Origin: an uncultured virus (IMG/VR IMGVR_UViG_3300025109_000005) | Taxonomy: Duplodnaviria; Heunggongvirae; Uroviricota; Caudoviricetes | DNA length: 20,000 nt | Reading direction: 5' to 3' (one strand) | IMG/VR virus record: IMGVR_UViG_3300025109_000005 | Shown: positions 77 to 8,087 of the stretch, in pieces | Layout: each line of letters opens with the position of its first letter | Position numbering within the stretch: the first letter of the stretch is position 1 | Translations under genes and position numbers: made by a program | The notes under the pieces: generated by a model | Told to the model about the DNA's origin: nothing | Databases searched by the model: none | The model's input: only the letters and a program-made list of their open reading frames with translations

Positions 77-1966
77 ATGATCTGGCGACAGCCACACTAT
101 GTCTACCGCGTTCCCGCGAGCGCCGTCAGCATCGACTTGGATACCGTAGAGCACACTGTCCCGGGTGCCCTGGTCTACGCCTACTGGAACCAACGACGCT
201 ATCGACTGCGCCAGATGTCTCCCGACGAGAGAGTCGCTGTCTCCGAGTACGAAATCCTGGCACCCCTGCACGGAGCGTGGCTCGTCGAGTCGACGCTCGC
301 TCACCACCAGCTGCCCTACACTGCCATCGGCAAGGACGTAGAGGGTATCTCGTTCTGGAGTAACGTCGCAGAGGACCGAGCTGCGCTCGAGCAAGATGGA
401 CGCAACCGTGTCAACGACCTGATCTCCCGGGGAATCATCCGACCCCATGTCGCGGACATTCTCACGCCCTACCAGGCGATGTCCGTGAGCTGGGCGGTGA
501 GTCGTCCCTGGGTGTTCAACGTGTGGCCGTGCGGATCGGGCAAGACTCTTGGCGCCATCGTCGCCTCTTTCACGCGCACTGGCCCGACCCTCGTGCTCAG
601 TCCAGCTAAGGCACGGCATGTCTGGTGGTCCCAGGTGCAGGAATATAGCACGATCACGCCGTTCCGTGTACGTCCGCAGGGAGAAAGAAAAGAAGATGAC
701 GAGACTCTCGACAGCTACCTGCGCCGCATGGGCTCGTTGGCCTTTGTCGTGGTGGGTGGAGAAGCTGTCGGTTTGTACATCGATGAGATCAAGCGAGTGG
801 CGCCAACGGTTCTCATTCTCGATGAACTCCACACGCACGGGAGTCGCAAGCGGTGGCAGGCCATCCACAAGGAAGATGGCACCGTGGACTTCGAGAAGAA
901 GCGGACGAGCAAGAACAACGTGACCCGTGCTGCCCATGTCATGGAGGTTGCGAACATGGACGGCATCAACCTGCGCGTCGGCCTGACAGCCACGCCCCTG
1001 GACGACGGCAGGCCGCGCAGACTGTGGAGTCAGCTGGACCTGCTCACCCCGGGTGGCTTCAGCCACAGCTTCAGCAAGTTCGCGTTCCGTCACTGTGATG
1101 CCGCGCCAGGACAGTATGGGGGCTTCGACGACCGGGGCAGCAGCAACCTCGACGAGCTCCGGTCACGGTGCAGCTTCTTCACGCACGAGGTTCCCTATAG
1201 CGAGAGTCACGCCGCGCTCCCTGATACCCGGGTGCAGGTCGTCTACTTGGACCGCTCAGAACTGAACGGGGCAGGTCGGTTCAGCGACGAGCAGACATTC
1301 AAGCAGGCGTTCAAGTCTCTGTCGAAGGAGACCAAGTTCAACTATGTCGCTCGAGAGCGTATGATCGAAGCGAGGCTCGCAGAAGCCTGCAGTCGAAAGC
1401 GGGGGTTCGTCATCGACGAGGTGAAGCAAGGCGTGCGTGGTGGTGGCAAGGTGGCAGTGTTCACAGCAAGGCGTAACGAGGCCGAGGTGTGGGCGCACAA
1501 GATCAAGAAGTCTCTCACCGAAGGCGACGAGAAGCTCGCGGACATCACGGTGTGGACAGCTCACGGAGGTGTCTCCGAGACCGAGCGAGATCGCATCACC
1601 GATGCGTACCGAGACCACTCTGGTCCTTGCGTGCTCGTGGCGACAGGGCAGAGCGTAGGCACAGGTGTTGATGGACTTCAGACCACAGACGTTGCCATCT
1701 TCGCGATGCTGCCGTGGAAGCCCGGTGATTTTACGCAGTGGAAGGGTCGGTTCGACCGACTCGGAGGAAACCCGACGCTGTTGAAGGTCATCGTTGCGAC
1801 CGGCACTTACGACGAGCGGGTGGTAGGGATTCTCGTGGAGAAGTTCGGACCCATCGAGCAGTTCCTCCAGGCAGATGAGTTGGAGGGCCTGGACACCAAG
1901 CTGCTCGGCATTGCTGACAAGGACGCCATGGTCAACAGCATTGTCAGCAGACTGGAGGCACTGTGA
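77..1966 (+). CDS. SNF2-like superfamily 2 helicase
   Basis: Motif I PCGSGKT, motif II LILDELH, motif III LTATP, LWSQL, motif V GTGVDGLQ, motif VI QWKGRFDRLG; 629 aa. Confidence 0.9.
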   Translation: MIWRQPHYVYRVPASAVSIDLDTVEHTVPGALVYAYWNQRRYRLRQMSPDERVAVSEYEILAPLHGAWLVESTLAHHQLPYTAIGKDVEGISFWSNVAEDRAALEQDGRNRVNDLISRGIIRPHVADILTPYQAMSVSWAVSRPWVFNVWPCGSGKTLGAIVASFTRTGPTLVLSPAKARHVWWSQVQEYSTITPFRVRPQGERKEDDETLDSYLRRMGSLAFVVVGGEAVGLYIDEIKRVAPTVLILDELHTHGSRKRWQAIHKEDGTVDFEKKRTSKNNVTRAAHVMEVANMDGINLRVGLTATPLDDGRPRRLWSQLDLLTPGGFSHSFSKFAFRHCDAAPGQYGGFDDRGSSNLDELRSRCSFFTHEVPYSESHAALPDTRVQVVYLDRSELNGAGRFSDEQTFKQAFKSLSKETKFNYVARERMIEARLAEACSRKRGFVIDEVKQGVRGGGKVAVFTARRNEAEVWAHKIKKSLTEGDEKLADITVWTAHGGVSETERDRITDAYRDHSGPCVLVATGQSVGTGVDGLQTTDVAIFAMLPWKPGDFTQWKGRFDRLGGNPTLLKVIVATGTYDERVVGILVEKFGPIEQFLQADELEGLDTKLLGIADKDAMVNSIVSRLEAL

Positions 1967-2652
1967 AGCCTGCGAAGAAGCCGAGCTACGATATACGTCA
2001 ATGTCCGTTGACTGTTGTTCGCGATCTTTGTGAGCGGTTTCATGGGTACAAGAGCGCAGGAAGTAACGCAACGTATTGTTTTGCCGTCTACGAAAATGAC
2101 TGCGCAATAGCCGGCTATATCTGGTCGCCTCCGCCACCCGGTGCGGCACGCTCAGTGTGCCCTGAAGCGCCTCATGGTGTCTTGGCGTTGTCTCGTATGG
2201 TCGCTGTTCCCCGAGAAGAAAGACAGCTAAACCATATCAGTAAACCTTTGCGTCGTCAGATGCGGACCTTGATTGATCGTGGTCGTTGGCCCGTGTTGAT
2301 CACCTACCACGATGAGGGTCAAGGTCACACAGGCCACGTCTATAAGTGTTCTGGCTGGAAGCCGACTACACGTAATCGTCGACCGGTGTACGAGACTGTC
2401 GAGGGTAAGCGCGCGTCTTCTTACAGTAACGGCAAACATGGTAAGCGCAAACTGAGCCGAGTCGGCTGGACCTATGTACAACGATGGGAGCATTGGTCAT
2501 GTGCGCAAGGAACTGCGGCAGAGCACATCAAGCGCAGCGGTTGGGTGCGAGTACCCATACCCGGAAAGACATGGAAGTCGGGAAACCCTGCACACAGGTA
2601 TGAGTTCAAGCCAAAACAACTAACGAGCGCACCGGTAGTTAGGAGATCTAGC
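1963..2652 (+). CDS. Mom-like GNAT-fold DNA modification domain (N-terminal part of ORF 1963-3639, no stop before the nuclease)
   Basis: GTGA overlap with helicase stop; RFHGY, LALSRMV, LITYHDEGQGHTGHVYKCSGW resemble the Mom-family HY / ELxR / ISYAD..GHxGxIYxAxNW pattern; lower GC than flanks. Confidence 0.7.
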
Positions 2653-3639
2653 ATGACGGAAAAGCTAATCGACGCAGGGCGAAGCCTCCGTGGATGGAGT
2701 CGGGTCGGCAACTTCTTCAAGTGCCCGCAGCTGTACTCCTATGACCAGCACCTGCACATCGACCTGATACCTGCGAGCGCACTCACGCGAGGTTCGATGG
2801 GTCATGTCATGCAGGCGCACCAGCATGCCATCTGGGGTGCGCGGCAAGGGAGCGTGCTGGTCGACGGGGTGAAGCACACGGACTCACGAGACTTTCTCGA
2901 GCCCGCTGAAGCGATGTCTGTCTGGTGCGACCAGTACGGTGGAGACGAGCACTTCGACAGGATGCTCGACACGTTCGACAACTACATCATGCAGTACCCC
3001 GACCCGCCTGGACGCATCGTTGCTGTCGAGACTTCGGTGACTGCCGTGATCGGTACGCGTGAAGGGCAGTGGGGTCTATGGGTGGTTCATCCTGACGTAG
3101 GCGATCTCGACCAGCCGGTCACATCCGTTCCAGGCATCGACGGAGTCGTCATCGAGATCACGCCGCTCAACATGCCGGGCCATGACAGGCACGACTGCCC
3201 GATCTACCTGACTCGACGCATGGACCTGGTGGTCGAAGACCGCATGGGGCGCATCGCCATCTGGGACCACAAGCACCAAGCTAATGTTCAACCTAACCGA
3301 AGCGTAGATGCCTACGCCATCGACGGTGGATTCGCTGCATTCCGCATCATGGGCAGGCAGCTGTATGGTCGCAACTTCGGTGGGCTGCTGCTCAACCTGA
3401 TTCAGACCCAACCCTCTTGGAAGGTCGCTCGTCGAAGCGTGCCACCTACACCGCATCGGGACAGTCACTTCTGCGACATGCTCTGGCGCGCCGAGCACAG
3501 TCTCGCACAACTCGAGGCGAGCAATCTCGACCCGTGGATGTGGCCCAAGGCGATGAATGAAACGGCCTGCTATGGGCGCTACGGCGCCTGCTCGGCCATC
3601 AAGCTCTGTTTCTTCGGAGAGAGAGGAAAAGTCTGTTGA
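2653..3639 (+). CDS. Cas4/AddB-like PD-(D/E)XK exonuclease with probable 4-Cys Fe-S staple (C-terminal part of ORF 1963-3639; own start at 2653)
   Basis: AGGAG (2641-2645) 7 nt before ATG 2653; WSR..FFKCPQ, RGSMGH, VAVE, MDLVV..IWDHK, terminal CYGRYGACSAIKLC. Confidence 0.8.
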   Translation: MTEKLIDAGRSLRGWSRVGNFFKCPQLYSYDQHLHIDLIPASALTRGSMGHVMQAHQHAIWGARQGSVLVDGVKHTDSRDFLEPAEAMSVWCDQYGGDEHFDRMLDTFDNYIMQYPDPPGRIVAVETSVTAVIGTREGQWGLWVVHPDVGDLDQPVTSVPGIDGVVIEITPLNMPGHDRHDCPIYLTRRMDLVVEDRMGRIAIWDHKHQANVQPNRSVDAYAIDGGFAAFRIMGRQLYGRNFGGLLLNLIQTQPSWKVARRSVPPTPHRDSHFCDMLWRAEHSLAQLEASNLDPWMWPKAMNETACYGRYGACSAIKLCFFGERGKVC

Positions 3640-3664
3640 CCCGCTGGGTCGCATCGGATAGTGT
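3636..3664 (+). promoter_or_regulatory. sigma70-type promoter upstream of the Sak4-like gene
   Basis: TTGACC (3636-3641), 17 nt, TAGTGT (3659-3664). Confidence 0.5.
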
Positions 3665-3690
3665 CTCTATAGTTTGACTGGAGAACCAAC

Positions 3691-4656
3691 ATGGAAAGCC
3701 CCGTAATGATCTGTGTGTACGGGAAGCCGAAGAGGGGTAAGACCTCCGACGCTCTCGCTGCATTCCCGAATGCCCTGTTTATCGGCGTACCGAGTGCCAT
3801 TAGCCTCGTTGCGCAGAATGAGCTCGGGTTCACACCCGCTCTTCACACGCATCCTCCGCAGACGCTTGACGCCCTGGTACAGGTGCTCAAGGAACTTCAC
3901 GAGAGCGGAGCCGCCAAGAACTACGGTGCCATCGTCATTGACGACGCCAGCCACATCTGTCGACAGAGCATGCTCTTCTGGCAGGCGAATGCACCTCGAG
4001 GACGGTCGGGTAAGCCTGACCGCTTCTACCAGTACCAGCAGCTCAACGTGCACCTGCTCACGCTCAGCTCCATGAGCCGGCACCTGGGCTGTCACCTCCT
4101 CATGACCTTTCACGAGAGAGCACCGGGACACAACGCCGATGGTGCATTCTGCCCCGGCGGTCCCGACGTACCCAGCCGCAACCAGGTAGAGATGTTGCCG
4201 TCGTGGTGCGACATGAGCCTCCGCACGCTGATCGACCCGACGTACCCAGATCCGTGGTTCCAGGCGATCTATTCGTGCAACCCCTCTGATCCCGACTGGA
4301 TCACAGGTGACCGCACAGGTGTCTGTTCGAGCAGGACCCCTGCGAACATCCGAGAAATCCTGCGCGCGAGTCAGTCCGGCTACGAGCTCTCTCGCCTCGC
4401 CGGACTCGAGTGGCAAGAGGATGTTGCCAACCGAGTTGCCAACGGGCTACAGGATGGTGAGGATCTTCGCGGGCTGCTTCAGCAAATCGCAGCCGGACAC
4501 TCGGGCGACCCGCGCCACCTGCGGTGGGCCTGTCAGGACGGCATTGCTCGCGGAGTCCTCTCTCGACGCCTCAACCGAGGCTTGTTCGATTTCACTCTCG
4601 AGGAGTCATCCTCAAAACCCGGCGGCAATCTGCCACCACCCCCACCAACCCCCTAA
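3691..4656 (+). CDS. Sak4-like / AAA_24 P-loop ATPase (putative single-strand annealing recombinase)
   Basis: Walker A VYGKPKRGKT, Walker B IVIDD, LLMTFHER; lies between exonuclease and SSB-like gene; GGAG RBS. Confidence 0.8.
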   Translation: MESPVMICVYGKPKRGKTSDALAAFPNALFIGVPSAISLVAQNELGFTPALHTHPPQTLDALVQVLKELHESGAAKNYGAIVIDDASHICRQSMLFWQANAPRGRSGKPDRFYQYQQLNVHLLTLSSMSRHLGCHLLMTFHERAPGHNADGAFCPGGPDVPSRNQVEMLPSWCDMSLRTLIDPTYPDPWFQAIYSCNPSDPDWITGDRTGVCSSRTPANIREILRASQSGYELSRLAGLEWQEDVANRVANGLQDGEDLRGLLQQIAAGHSGDPRHLRWACQDGIARGVLSRRLNRGLFDFTLEESSSKPGGNLPPPPPTP

Positions 4657-5318: not shown

Positions 5319-5324
5319 TTGTCA

Positions 5325-5370
5325 GGGGGTGGCCTCGACACCGGCACGTCGAGGTCATCCCCACCCTTTC
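5325..5370 (+). terminator. 15-bp stem-loop (terminator, attenuator or processing site) between SSB and polymerase
   Basis: GGGGGTGGCCTCGAC (5325-5339) pairs with GTCGAGGTCATCCCC (5348-5362) with 2 GU pairs and an 8-nt loop; short pyrimidine tail ACCCTTTC. Confidence 0.6.
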
Positions 5371-5381
5371 TCCGGTGCAGT

Positions 5382-8087
5382 TTGACTTTCAATCCCCAAG
5401 AACACGGCGCAAAGTGCGAGGTGTGTCCGCTCGGACCTCGTGGCTGCTTCAACGATGAGGACTGGCGCCCTGTCGGTCCAGAGATTCATGAAGGTGCCAC
5501 AGTTCTCGCTGTCGGAGAGAGTCCGTCGCACGAGGACACCCACCACCAGCGTCCTTTCATGGGTCGAGGCGCATCAGAGTGGGCGACAGCGCTGGCTGTG
5601 ATCTGCAAGAGTCGGCCCGACATCGACCTCACCAACGTCATTGCGTGCAAGCCTCCTGGTCAGGCCAGTGGTGCCTGGACACGGATGACGCGGAAGCTCG
5701 ACCGACTGAACAAGTCTCGACAGAGCAAGGGGCAACAGCCTCACCCTCACCCGATGACCTGTTGCCTGCCGCACTTGCACAGTCTGGCTGCCAAGTACGA
5801 GAACATCATCACGCTTGGTCGTATCGCGACACTCGCCCTGACTGGGCAGAACAAGAGCATCTTCTCTGTTCGCGGCGGCCCTATCTACGTCGATGAAGAC
5901 TGGCAGACTTCCGGGGAGGGCCGGCGCGTCTTTCCCACCGTGCACCCGGACTACATTACTCGAGCGCCGTCCTGGCGCAGTGTCCTGCACGCAGACCTGG
6001 GTAAGGCGTTTCGCTGGTTCACCGGAGCACTCAAGTGGACAGACCCAGACATTCTCTGGCGTCCATCGCCCGATGATCTACGCACCTTTCTTGCGCAGCC
6101 TGCACCCTACTGGGCATACGATGTGGAGACTGATGGAGTCGAGCCATTGGAGTGCGGGCTGCGCACCATCGCCATTGCCATCCCTGACCTGGATAGCAAG
6201 GGCCGAGTCGTCAAGGGTGGCCGGTCTGTTGCCCAGAACAGTTATGCCGTGGGCATCACGCTCCAGTCTGTGCGAGGCGCTCGGTGGCTCTGCCCCGAAG
6301 ACGAAGCCGAGATCAAGGACATCCTGTGCAAGGCGTTCACCGACGGGCGCACCTGGGTGGGGCACAACGCGGGTAGCTTCGACCGGATGGTCATCGAGAA
6401 CCACCTCGGTGTCACCCCCGCGCCTCTCGTCGATACCCTCTTCTCCACGCGGTTCCGTGCGCCAGACCTACCGAAGGGGCTGAAGACAATCGGATCCATC
6501 CTGACAGACGTGGAGCGGTGGGAATCCACAGAGAAAGGCGCAAGCATCTCGACAGGCACCACCGATGACGACGAGCTCCTCCGATACAACTGCATCGACA
6601 CCGTAGTCAACGCGCGCATCCTGCCCCCGCTCATCGAAGCGACAGACTTCAACGGTGCCTTCAGACAGCTGCCCGCGTGGGCGCGGCCTGCAAGCTGGCC
6701 CGACAAGCCCTGGAACCTACACCAGGTCGACCATGCCACCCAGGACATGTGCGTGCAGATGCACAAGGCAGGTGTCTGGATTGACCAGACTCGTCGTCGT
6801 CAACTCGAGGACCACTACACGGTCTTGGTGGGTCAACGTCAGAAGTGGCTCATCGATGAAGCCCGGGGATGGACGCAGACGTTCAACAACCCGGGTAGCG
6901 GGGACCAGGTACGCAACCTGCTCTACGACATCTGGTCACTGGGCATCCCTCCACAAATCGATGCGCGTGAGTTCTACACCGAGACGGGTCTCCCAGGAAC
7001 GGGGGATGCAGTCATCCGAGCGCACCTCGCTGCAGACAATGTCACTGCGAATCAAGCGACGTGGCTCAAGCAGCTGCGTGTGTATCGGCGGGAAAAGAAC
7101 AAGATCCTGGGCACTGTGCTCATCCCCATGCGCAGACGAGATGCAGACCCCGTGAAGGGCATCGTGTTCGAGGACGGTCGTGTCCGCAGCAACTGGAACG
7201 CACACGTCACCAGTGTGGGCAGGCTCAGCTCCAGTGGTCCGAACCTACAAAACATCGGCAACCGCAAGGGTCAGGCTCCGCTCAAGAGCATCTTCTCCGC
7301 ACCTCCTGGTCGAATGTTCATCGGGGCGGATCTGGACCAGGCCCACTTGAGAATCACCGCATGCTACTGGCGCATCCCGATGCTCCTCGAGTGCTTCGCC
7401 AGCGGACAGGACCCACACAACACGCTGGCGTGGAGCGTGTTCGGCGACAAGTTCAAGAGCGCAGACGGCTGGGGCCCAGACGGATTCAGCCTTCACCGCA
7501 AGCCCCCGGGCGGCCAGGCCAAGTCCATGCGCGACATCATCAAGACGTTCAGGTACGCATCCATCTACTGGGCGTCTCCCGCAACGGTCTGGCAGGTGCT
7601 CACTTCGACGGAGACGGATGAGGGCGATCTCCCCTACCTGGGATTCAGTCTGCGAGATGTTCGGTTCATCCACGATGCGTGGCTCGAGGCAGAGCCCGAA
7701 TGGATGAAGGCATGGCAGTCAATGCTCAAGCTCTACCGCCAACAGGGATTCATGGACGAGCCTGTGTTCGGCAGACGGTCGGGCCCCCTGAGCGATGGCA
7801 AGAAGAACGAAGTGGTCAACTACCCGATATTGAGTGCCGAGTCTGCCGTCATGCGGATTGCCGAGCAGCGTCTGATCGAGCAGTTCCCCTATGGATTCGC
7901 AGGACCCGGCACGGGACTCATCCACCAGTGCCACGACAGCGTTGCCATCGAAGTGCCCGACGAGGGAGAGCATCAGCTCGAGCAGTGGCGCAAGCTCGTC
8001 GAGCAGTGCATGACCGTCGAGGTTCCCGGGTGGGTGGTCACCATGACTTCCGAGGCCGCAGTCGGTAAGACTCTGAAGGAGGTCTGA
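5382..8087 (+). CDS. Family A DNA polymerase with N-terminal family-4 uracil-DNA glycosylase domain and 3'-5' exonuclease (SPO1-type architecture); start uncertain (TTG 5382 preferred over 5319)
   Basis: UDG: CEVCPL, GESPS..ED..RPFMG, TNVIACKPP, ITLG, PTVHP. Exo I YDVETDG, Exo II GHNAGSFD, Exo III YNCID. Pol: GRLSSSGPNLQNI, motif A ADLDQAHLR, motif B RDIIKTFRYASIYW, motif C CHDS. Confidence 0.93.
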   Translation: MTFNPQEHGAKCEVCPLGPRGCFNDEDWRPVGPEIHEGATVLAVGESPSHEDTHHQRPFMGRGASEWATALAVICKSRPDIDLTNVIACKPPGQASGAWTRMTRKLDRLNKSRQSKGQQPHPHPMTCCLPHLHSLAAKYENIITLGRIATLALTGQNKSIFSVRGGPIYVDEDWQTSGEGRRVFPTVHPDYITRAPSWRSVLHADLGKAFRWFTGALKWTDPDILWRPSPDDLRTFLAQPAPYWAYDVETDGVEPLECGLRTIAIAIPDLDSKGRVVKGGRSVAQNSYAVGITLQSVRGARWLCPEDEAEIKDILCKAFTDGRTWVGHNAGSFDRMVIENHLGVTPAPLVDTLFSTRFRAPDLPKGLKTIGSILTDVERWESTEKGASISTGTTDDDELLRYNCIDTVVNARILPPLIEATDFNGAFRQLPAWARPASWPDKPWNLHQVDHATQDMCVQMHKAGVWIDQTRRRQLEDHYTVLVGQRQKWLIDEARGWTQTFNNPGSGDQVRNLLYDIWSLGIPPQIDAREFYTETGLPGTGDAVIRAHLAADNVTANQATWLKQLRVYRREKNKILGTVLIPMRRRDADPVKGIVFEDGRVRSNWNAHVTSVGRLSSSGPNLQNIGNRKGQAPLKSIFSAPPGRMFIGADLDQAHLRITACYWRIPMLLECFASGQDPHNTLAWSVFGDKFKSADGWGPDGFSLHRKPPGGQAKSMRDIIKTFRYASIYWASPATVWQVLTSTETDEGDLPYLGFSLRDVRFIHDAWLEAEPEWMKAWQSMLKLYRQQGFMDEPVFGRRSGPLSDGKKNEVVNYPILSAESAVMRIAEQRLIEQFPYGFAGPGTGLIHQCHDSVAIEVPDEGEHQLEQWRKLVEQCMTVEVPGWVVTMTSEAAVGKTLKEV

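Follow-up and report, generated by a model that had tools for sequence, protein, structure and literature searches.

An in-frame fusion of a Mom-like domain and a Cas4/AddB-like exonuclease in an uncultured tailed phage, most likely a by-product of a recent cassette insertion

The stretch of DNA examined here (the window) comprises 20,000 nucleotides of an uncultured tailed phage (IMG/VR record IMGVR_UViG_3300025109_000005). It contains a plus-strand open reading frame (ORF) of 558 amino acids (positions 1963 to 3639) in which a domain resembling Mom, a DNA-modifying protein of phage Mu, is joined in frame to a Cas4/AddB-like exonuclease. This Mom-exonuclease fusion is real and lineage specific and is most likely a by-product. 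It probably represents read-through from a Mom cassette without a stop codon, tolerated and not selected as an architecture. In related phages the two genes are unfused, and for that reason the fusion looks like a by-product.

The fused ORF and its stop-free junction

The initial annotation described a single 558-codon ORF with an in-frame AGGAG and ATG at 2641 to 2655, where the nuclease begins, and this description was borne out (Table 1). The GTG start of the ORF overlaps the TGA of the helicase gene (GTGA, 1963 to 1966). The internal ATG (2653 to 2655, codon 231) lies downstream of AGGAGA and corresponds to the nuclease's own start in sibling phages that are 99% identical. Between 2580 and 2660, the frame of the ORF was free of stops, with three stops in each of the other frames (2621, 2636, and 2654; 2601, 2640, and 2649). 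A 558-amino-acid chain is expected because the cassette is stop free and in frame with the exonuclease ATG. Among the 15 in-frame ATGs of the ORF, that at 2653 had the strongest pairing with an anti-Shine-Dalgarno (anti-SD) 9-mer (-7.3 kcal/mol; next strongest, -6.5). Two products, the fusion and a free nuclease, are plausible from these signals. Neither a sigma-70 promoter (sense strand) nor a terminator was found between 1800 and 3800, and an Rfam search gave no match. No canonical slippery heptamer for a programmed frameshift releasing free Mom was seen, as judged by eye only.

Table 1. Positions of the fused ORF's parts and of adjoining features in the window
Feature	Position	Strand	Basis
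Helicase, SNF2/SF2 type, upstream anchor of the slot	77..1966	+	Pfam Helicase_C, SNF2-rel; phrog_62 (E=9e-42)
Polymorphic cassette, missing or swapped in sibling phages	1961..2649	+	Sibling alignments, contig joints, GC content at third codon positions (GC3)
Mom-like GNAT domain, amino acids 1-215, GTG start, SD-like GGAGG upstream	1963..2607	+	Pfam, phrog, AlphaFold2 (AF2), fold matches; SD pairing, -9.3 kcal/mol
Linker, 15 codons, stop free, coil in model	2608..2652	+	Stops present in other frames only
SD-like AGGAGA serving the internal start, belonging to the cassette	2641..2646	+	Pairing score, allele comparison
Cas4/AddB-like PD-(D/E)XK exonuclease, 328 amino acids, own ATG	2653..3639	+	Pfam, phrog, cysteines, fold; same start in L002/L003
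Sak4-like single-stranded-DNA annealing ATPase, likely exonuclease partner	3691..4656	+	phrog_124 (E=8e-12), Pfam AAA_24

The junction was compared in assembled contigs of four (X6, X7, X11, and X12) of the 22 listed runs, and no stop or frameshift before 2653, for which the initial annotation had advised a check, was seen in these independent assemblies. One X6 contig was identical to the window over 1700 to 2771, with no skipping joint listed, and an X7 contig was identical over 1931 to 2679, ending only 26 bases beyond the A of the ATG. The X12 contig (1991 to 2678) carried five substitutions and no gap; the four listed were D105N and three silent changes, and the fifth position was unseen and could be a stop. 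The X11 contig covered the cassette only up to 2348. Loci L001 and L023 had the same read-through as the window. The 558-amino-acid protein was present in four source collections, and its 90% protein cluster of 10 members consisted of three proteins of 558 amino acids, six of 328, and one fragment, with no Mom-only member. Five further runs contained all sampled words of the window and may be its own source. The stop-free junction is not an assembly error.

A recent cassette in a variable helicase-nuclease slot

The insertion proposed in the initial annotation is supported: the Mom part arrived recently, as a cassette in a variable helicase-nuclease slot, and siblings 99% identical to the window had another gene there or none. 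In two of these (L002 and L003), the 99% identity held on both sides of the slot, with matches running up to 1960 to 1966 and resuming from 2650. Their slot contained a 66-codon ORF joined by ATGA overlaps, and an identical 328-amino-acid nuclease started at the ATG equivalent to 2653. An X11 contig joined the helicase straight to the nuclease (1957>2651), which represents an empty slot, and run X7 yielded both the Mom allele and an allele without Mom (joint 1960>2650). Three slot alleles (Mom, 66-codon ORF, and empty) were therefore found in near-identical phages. Relatives with the helicase directly before the nuclease, which the initial annotation had suggested seeking, also occurred more widely: among 93 nuclease loci, 87 had both anchors, and in these the gap was ≤60 bp in 30, intermediate in 1, and filled in 56, the filled slots falling into 20 DNA groups. 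The slot gene ran in frame into the nuclease only in the window allele among these 20 groups, and the nuclease occurred without Mom in 83 of the 87 loci with both anchors.

Base composition also set the cassette apart. The 47 to 48% GC previously counted over 1981 to 2100 was reproduced (0.475), though this is among the most AT-rich stretches; the Mom part as a whole had a GC content of 0.54 versus 0.60 to 0.61 in its neighbors. GC3 was 0.52 in the Mom part versus 0.74 pooled over four neighboring genes (Fisher test, P=5.5e-11). The Mom allele is young, with 1 difference within the cassette in L023, 5 in X12, and a range of 0 to 5 in ~690 bp. No target duplication was found in the window; the longest shared string was 7 bp, and a repeat search at both ends of the cassette gave nothing meaningful. 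Before its nuclease, the L002 allele has only a weak SD (-3.0) plus the ATGA overlap, and the SD before 2653 comes with the cassette. Because no stop overlaps the ATG at 2653, a free nuclease made from the Mom allele would depend on the AGGAGA supplied by the cassette.

DNA-modification and nucleotide cargo concentrates in the slot, a hot spot in this phage group whose contents include genes for Dam methylase and nucleoside-2-deoxyribosyltransferase-like proteins (L134, 3495 to 3983; L082, 2624 to 3043; L005). A TATAG-containing spacer just upstream of the nuclease was common to L011, L050, and L051 and absent from the window; it is possibly a phage promoter that travels with slot cassettes.

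Fused and separate genes in relatives

In loci L050 and L051, which emerged from the Mom search, the slot lies between anchors 52 to 54% identical to those of the window. It is occupied by a Mom-like gene (54% identity) that ends at a stop of its own and is followed by a spacer and an unfused nuclease gene. None of 200 bootstrap trees (0%) grouped the L050/L051 Mom with that of the window, which favors separate arrivals of Mom in the slot of each lineage. A different tree, of 94 rows, was computed in quick mode and had weak support. The exonuclease was standalone in all other relatives examined. No second protein covering both halves was found, as none of 101 matches covered more than 59% of the 558-amino-acid query. 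No other Mom-exonuclease fusion was detected among seven longer Mom matches, in a weak search that missed the products of L020 and L021, which were seen as DNA.

Homologues typically ended near the start of the region that forms the linker in the window. Their tails after the WxSG motif were 12 to 42 amino acids long (median, 16.5), compared with 27 up to M231 in the window, and 10 of 118 were at least 27 amino acids long. After removal of duplicates and of four open, broken, or truncated loci, 35 distinct Mom-like loci had their 3' end complete. Of these, 5 ran on for at least 60 codons, namely, the window and 4 of the 34 others. These four read into a Gam-like/phrog_10477 gene (L021), DnaE (L022, with a frameshift in Mom), a small ORF (L045), and a small repressor-like ORF (L063). 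Each had an in-frame ATG near the join, with a strong SD in L045 only. Further read-throughs led into a Gam-like gene (P0087) and into a methyltransferase (MTase) plus SbcC-like protein (P0232). The Mom-like subfamily thus has a loose 3' end that reads into varied downstream frames. Two different Mom-like genes that did not group in the quick tree, those of L021 (4001 to 5239) and P0087, continue in frame into a Gam-like/phrog_10477 gene with an ATG of its own.

Of 32 distinct loci, 5 (L025, L027/L028/L030, L033, L045, and L051) had direct repeats of 22 to 91 bp on either side of the cassette. These exact repeats copied the last part of the upstream gene or the ribosome-binding site of the next gene, a sequence pattern that suggests insertion with target duplication. 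The repeats of L033, a short contig, may reflect assembly. The L045 repeat includes a copy of the SD, and the Mom frame there continues through the second copy. Domains of HNH, LAGLIDADG-like, or EndoVII-like type were joined to Mom-like domains in L020 (3227 to 4639), P0091, P0092, P0094, P0097, P0321, and P0326, and such joining is a possible route of Mom mobility. In a profile search of representatives (best 150 of 491, with 7 of the longer matches scanned), nuclease-like parts lay N-terminal to Mom.

The Mom-like domain

The resemblance of the N-terminal part to Mom, as first annotated, held in profile and fold comparisons. Amino acids 1 to 215 scored 38.8 bits against the Pfam Mom family (PF25680), passing the gathering threshold of 27.1, and matched phrog_1384 (E=1e-14). 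The AF2 model had a predicted local distance difference test (pLDDT) score of 94, and Mu Mom (8bv8) ranked first among fold matches by Foldseek (E=5e-10) and VIA-align (Z=16.4, next 12.4; root mean square deviation, 2.7; 170 aligned). Sequence searches of the PDB with the Mom-like and nuclease domains yielded nothing useful.

PMC13219725 describes Mu Mom as a dimer that carries out a Gly-tRNA-dependent modification of adenine N6 and for which S124 and R151 are essential. Residues H58, R111, D149, and Y159 of Mu Mom aligned with H27, R78, D117, and Y127 of the window protein, which were invariant in 121 sequences. S124 and R151 aligned with L89 and G119, both near-invariant in the Mom-like subfamily, and Y59 aligned with G28, with Y29 one column away, in a profile alignment that is weak (probability, 7%). 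The protein is called Mom-like here, with its chemistry left uncertain, because of that weak alignment; equivalents of S124 and R151 seem to be absent. The subfamily (792 matches) has an invariant C-terminal extension motif and may install a different modification. Cultured phages gave one weak Mom-like match and no fusion. Immediately behind its divergent Mom-like gene, L027 carries another Mom gene, of canonical type (3479 to 4453; PF25680, 187 bits).

The exonuclease domain and its gene neighborhood

Amino acids 231 to 558 matched PF12705 below the Pfam cutoff (E=0.005), the C-terminal part matched the phrog_1218 exonuclease (E=3e-8), and fold matches of the nuclease model were ACE1 (Cas4 family), AdnA, RecE, SSO0001, and AddB. 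Four cysteines, one N-terminal and three C-terminal (C24, C306, C313, and C319 in 328-residue numbering; C254, C536, C543, and C549 in the fusion), were invariant in 88 sequences. In the same alignment, E126 of the PD-(D/E)XK core was invariant, and D191 and D205-H-K207 were at least 90% conserved. These features fit an Fe-S exonuclease of the Cas4-like PF12705 group (PMC5704561). Complex prediction with the Mom-like part (amino acids 1 to 217) and the nuclease yielded scores of 0.00 and 0.02 (mark, 0.32) and weighs neither way.

The nuclease gene, next to a Sak4-like gene, belongs to the recombination core, and its product is not a restriction enzyme. The operon in the window also encodes DNA polymerase A, an SbcC/SMC-like ATPase, and a DUF927 primase/helicase. 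The polymerase (5319 to 8087) carries an N-terminal domain of the uracil-DNA-glycosylase family, a combination already known in phage polymerases.

Origin of the fusion and alternative explanations

In the favored explanation, a Mom-like gene recently entered the helicase-exonuclease slot of a marine tailed phage, and its cassette, lacking an in-frame stop, ends in frame with the exonuclease ATG; the insertion and the join are themselves visible in the alleles compared. Ribosomes coupled from the helicase through the GTGA overlap and SD would make the 558-amino-acid Mom-exonuclease chain, and the SD at 2641 with the ancestral ATG at 2653 would yield the normal 328-amino-acid exonuclease. The two domains would act independently across the 15-residue coil. 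By analogy with Mu Mom, the Mom-like part, of uncertain chemistry, may acylate phage DNA bases and so block host restriction. Gene context and what is known of such modules suggest that the exonuclease resects ends for Sak4-type annealing.

Several observations weigh against a tolerated by-product. The read-through was kept in every sampled copy (L001, L023, X6, X7, and X12, with one substitution unseen), and the 90% cluster was without a Mom-only member (0/10), the runs being dated 2015 to 2025. Such fixation fits a young allele and also selection, and it says little because the allele is so young. Both domains are intact, and several of the other read-through partners are also DNA-metabolism genes. 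A single clade for the Mom of the window and of L050/L051 was allowed (approximately unbiased test, p-AU 0.16; 22 rows). Read-through was not significantly more frequent in Mom-like loci than in other slot cargo (4/34 versus 0/18; Fisher test, P=0.29), and the search for longer proteins had missed products present as DNA. The window also shows no target duplication, and candidate routes to the missing stop are an indel near 2613 to 2616, a substitution at codon 219, or a crossover.

The initial annotation had put forward a purposeful fusion that tethers modification or pairs protection with restriction, which the evidence does not support: L050 and L051 hold the pair unfused, the subfamily reads into varied neighbors, and the nuclease is not a restriction enzyme. 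Selected tethering, in which the modifier would be brought to DNA ends during resection or recombination so that new or recombined phage DNA is marked first, with the internal start preserving free nuclease, is unlikely. It would account for the read-through in all sampled copies, the apparently intact domains (model pLDDT, 94 to 95), the silence of three of the five known substitutions in the Mom part, and the DNA-metabolism partners elsewhere (DnaE, Gam-like, and MTase plus SbcC-like). The fusion is nevertheless confined to a single lineage, the two genes stay separate in L050 and L051, the partners may be mere neighbors in replication modules, and linker conservation cannot be demonstrated. 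A fuller version, given the same low credence, holds that the 558-residue protein is produced and favored, a divergent Mom-like enzyme without S124 and R151 equivalents, perhaps making another base modification, that is tethered to the phage's Fe-S recombination exonuclease and marks processed ends. The fusion would then have been caught at birth, segregating in ocean samples alongside empty and alternative alleles, and would stem from a mobile cassette that has joined itself to replication and recombination genes time and again.

Slightly less probable is that read-through mutes a toxic modifier, for example, by hindering its dimer, so that only the 328-residue nuclease matters. Mu Mom is toxic to Escherichia coli and forms a dimer according to PMC7261163 (dimer also in PMC13219725), and broken copies occur in the subfamily (L022, L048, and L057). 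Where alleles co-occurred, the Mom contig was also the shallower one (X7, 12 versus 50 to 53; X11, 12 versus 30 to 35 for the flanking contigs), contig depth not being genome share. Against such decay, the window protein keeps all 36 invariant columns, though by that alignment's own definition, no copy has a frameshift, and the X6 Mom-allele contig passes through the junction without a skipping joint.

A single-chain restriction-modification unit that modifies self and cuts foreign DNA is very improbable. It has a printed precedent in the protect-and-cut proposal for jumbo-phage proteins in which Mom is fused to restriction endonuclease (REase)-fold domains (PMC7824862), and the nuclease has a PD-(D/E)XK fold. 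However, the nuclease is a core gene (of 87 loci, 83 have it without Mom, as do the 99%-identical siblings), modifier and nuclease are not inherited as one unit and are unfused in L050 and L051, and the nuclease has a Sak4-like neighbor and matches Cas4, AdnA, AddB, and RecE exonucleases and not restriction endonucleases. Least credible of all is the loss of a stop through an assembly or sequencing artefact: altering a single base of the A-run near 2613 to 2616, or a substitution at codon 219, would give a homologue-typical Mom length, but X6 and X7 show no difference, X12 is gap free, L001 and L023 agree, and the protein recurs in four source collections.

Comparison with known systems

Like Mu Mom, the window protein adopts a GNAT fold, for which 8bv8 stands clearly first among the matches; it also has four aligned active-site residues and the character of a phage accessory gene. 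It is only ~15% identical, has L89 and G119 where Mu has S124 and R151 (by the weak alignment), lies in a replication/recombination operon whereas Mu mom lies in a late operon with Com, and continues into a nuclease. The exonuclease shares the PD-(D/E)XK core, the 1+3 cysteines, and the fold matches of the Cas4/AddB-like PF12705 phage exonucleases (PMC5704561), with no CRISPR link seen in the window; the window allele alone adds an N-terminal Mom-like extension.

The initial annotation was aware of no earlier description of this architecture. The jumbo-phage fusions of PMC7824862 also place a nuclease on one polypeptide with a Mom-like domain, but those nucleases are endonucleases and that of the window is an exonuclease; in the literature searched, no description was found of Mom joined to a Cas4/AddB-like recombination exonuclease. 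In the homing-nuclease-Mom fusions examined (HNH, LAGLIDADG-like, and EndoVII), the nuclease-like part sits at the N terminus in most cases and travels with Mom. The window differs from both the homing-type and the Mom-REase fusions: its Mom-like part comes first in the chain, its nuclease is a resident core gene that keeps a start of its own, and only one allele has the join.

Implications

Were the fusion a functional tether, it would link DNA hypermodification to recombination, a link for which no description was found in the literature searched. The finding also points to a large Mom-like subfamily (792 matches) with an apparently altered active site. Read as a by-product, the fusion is a natural example of how phage domain fusions originate, with fused, alternative, and empty alleles coexisting in near-identical genomes. 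Since relatives retain the unfused pair and the alleles coexist, each step of the fusion can be compared.

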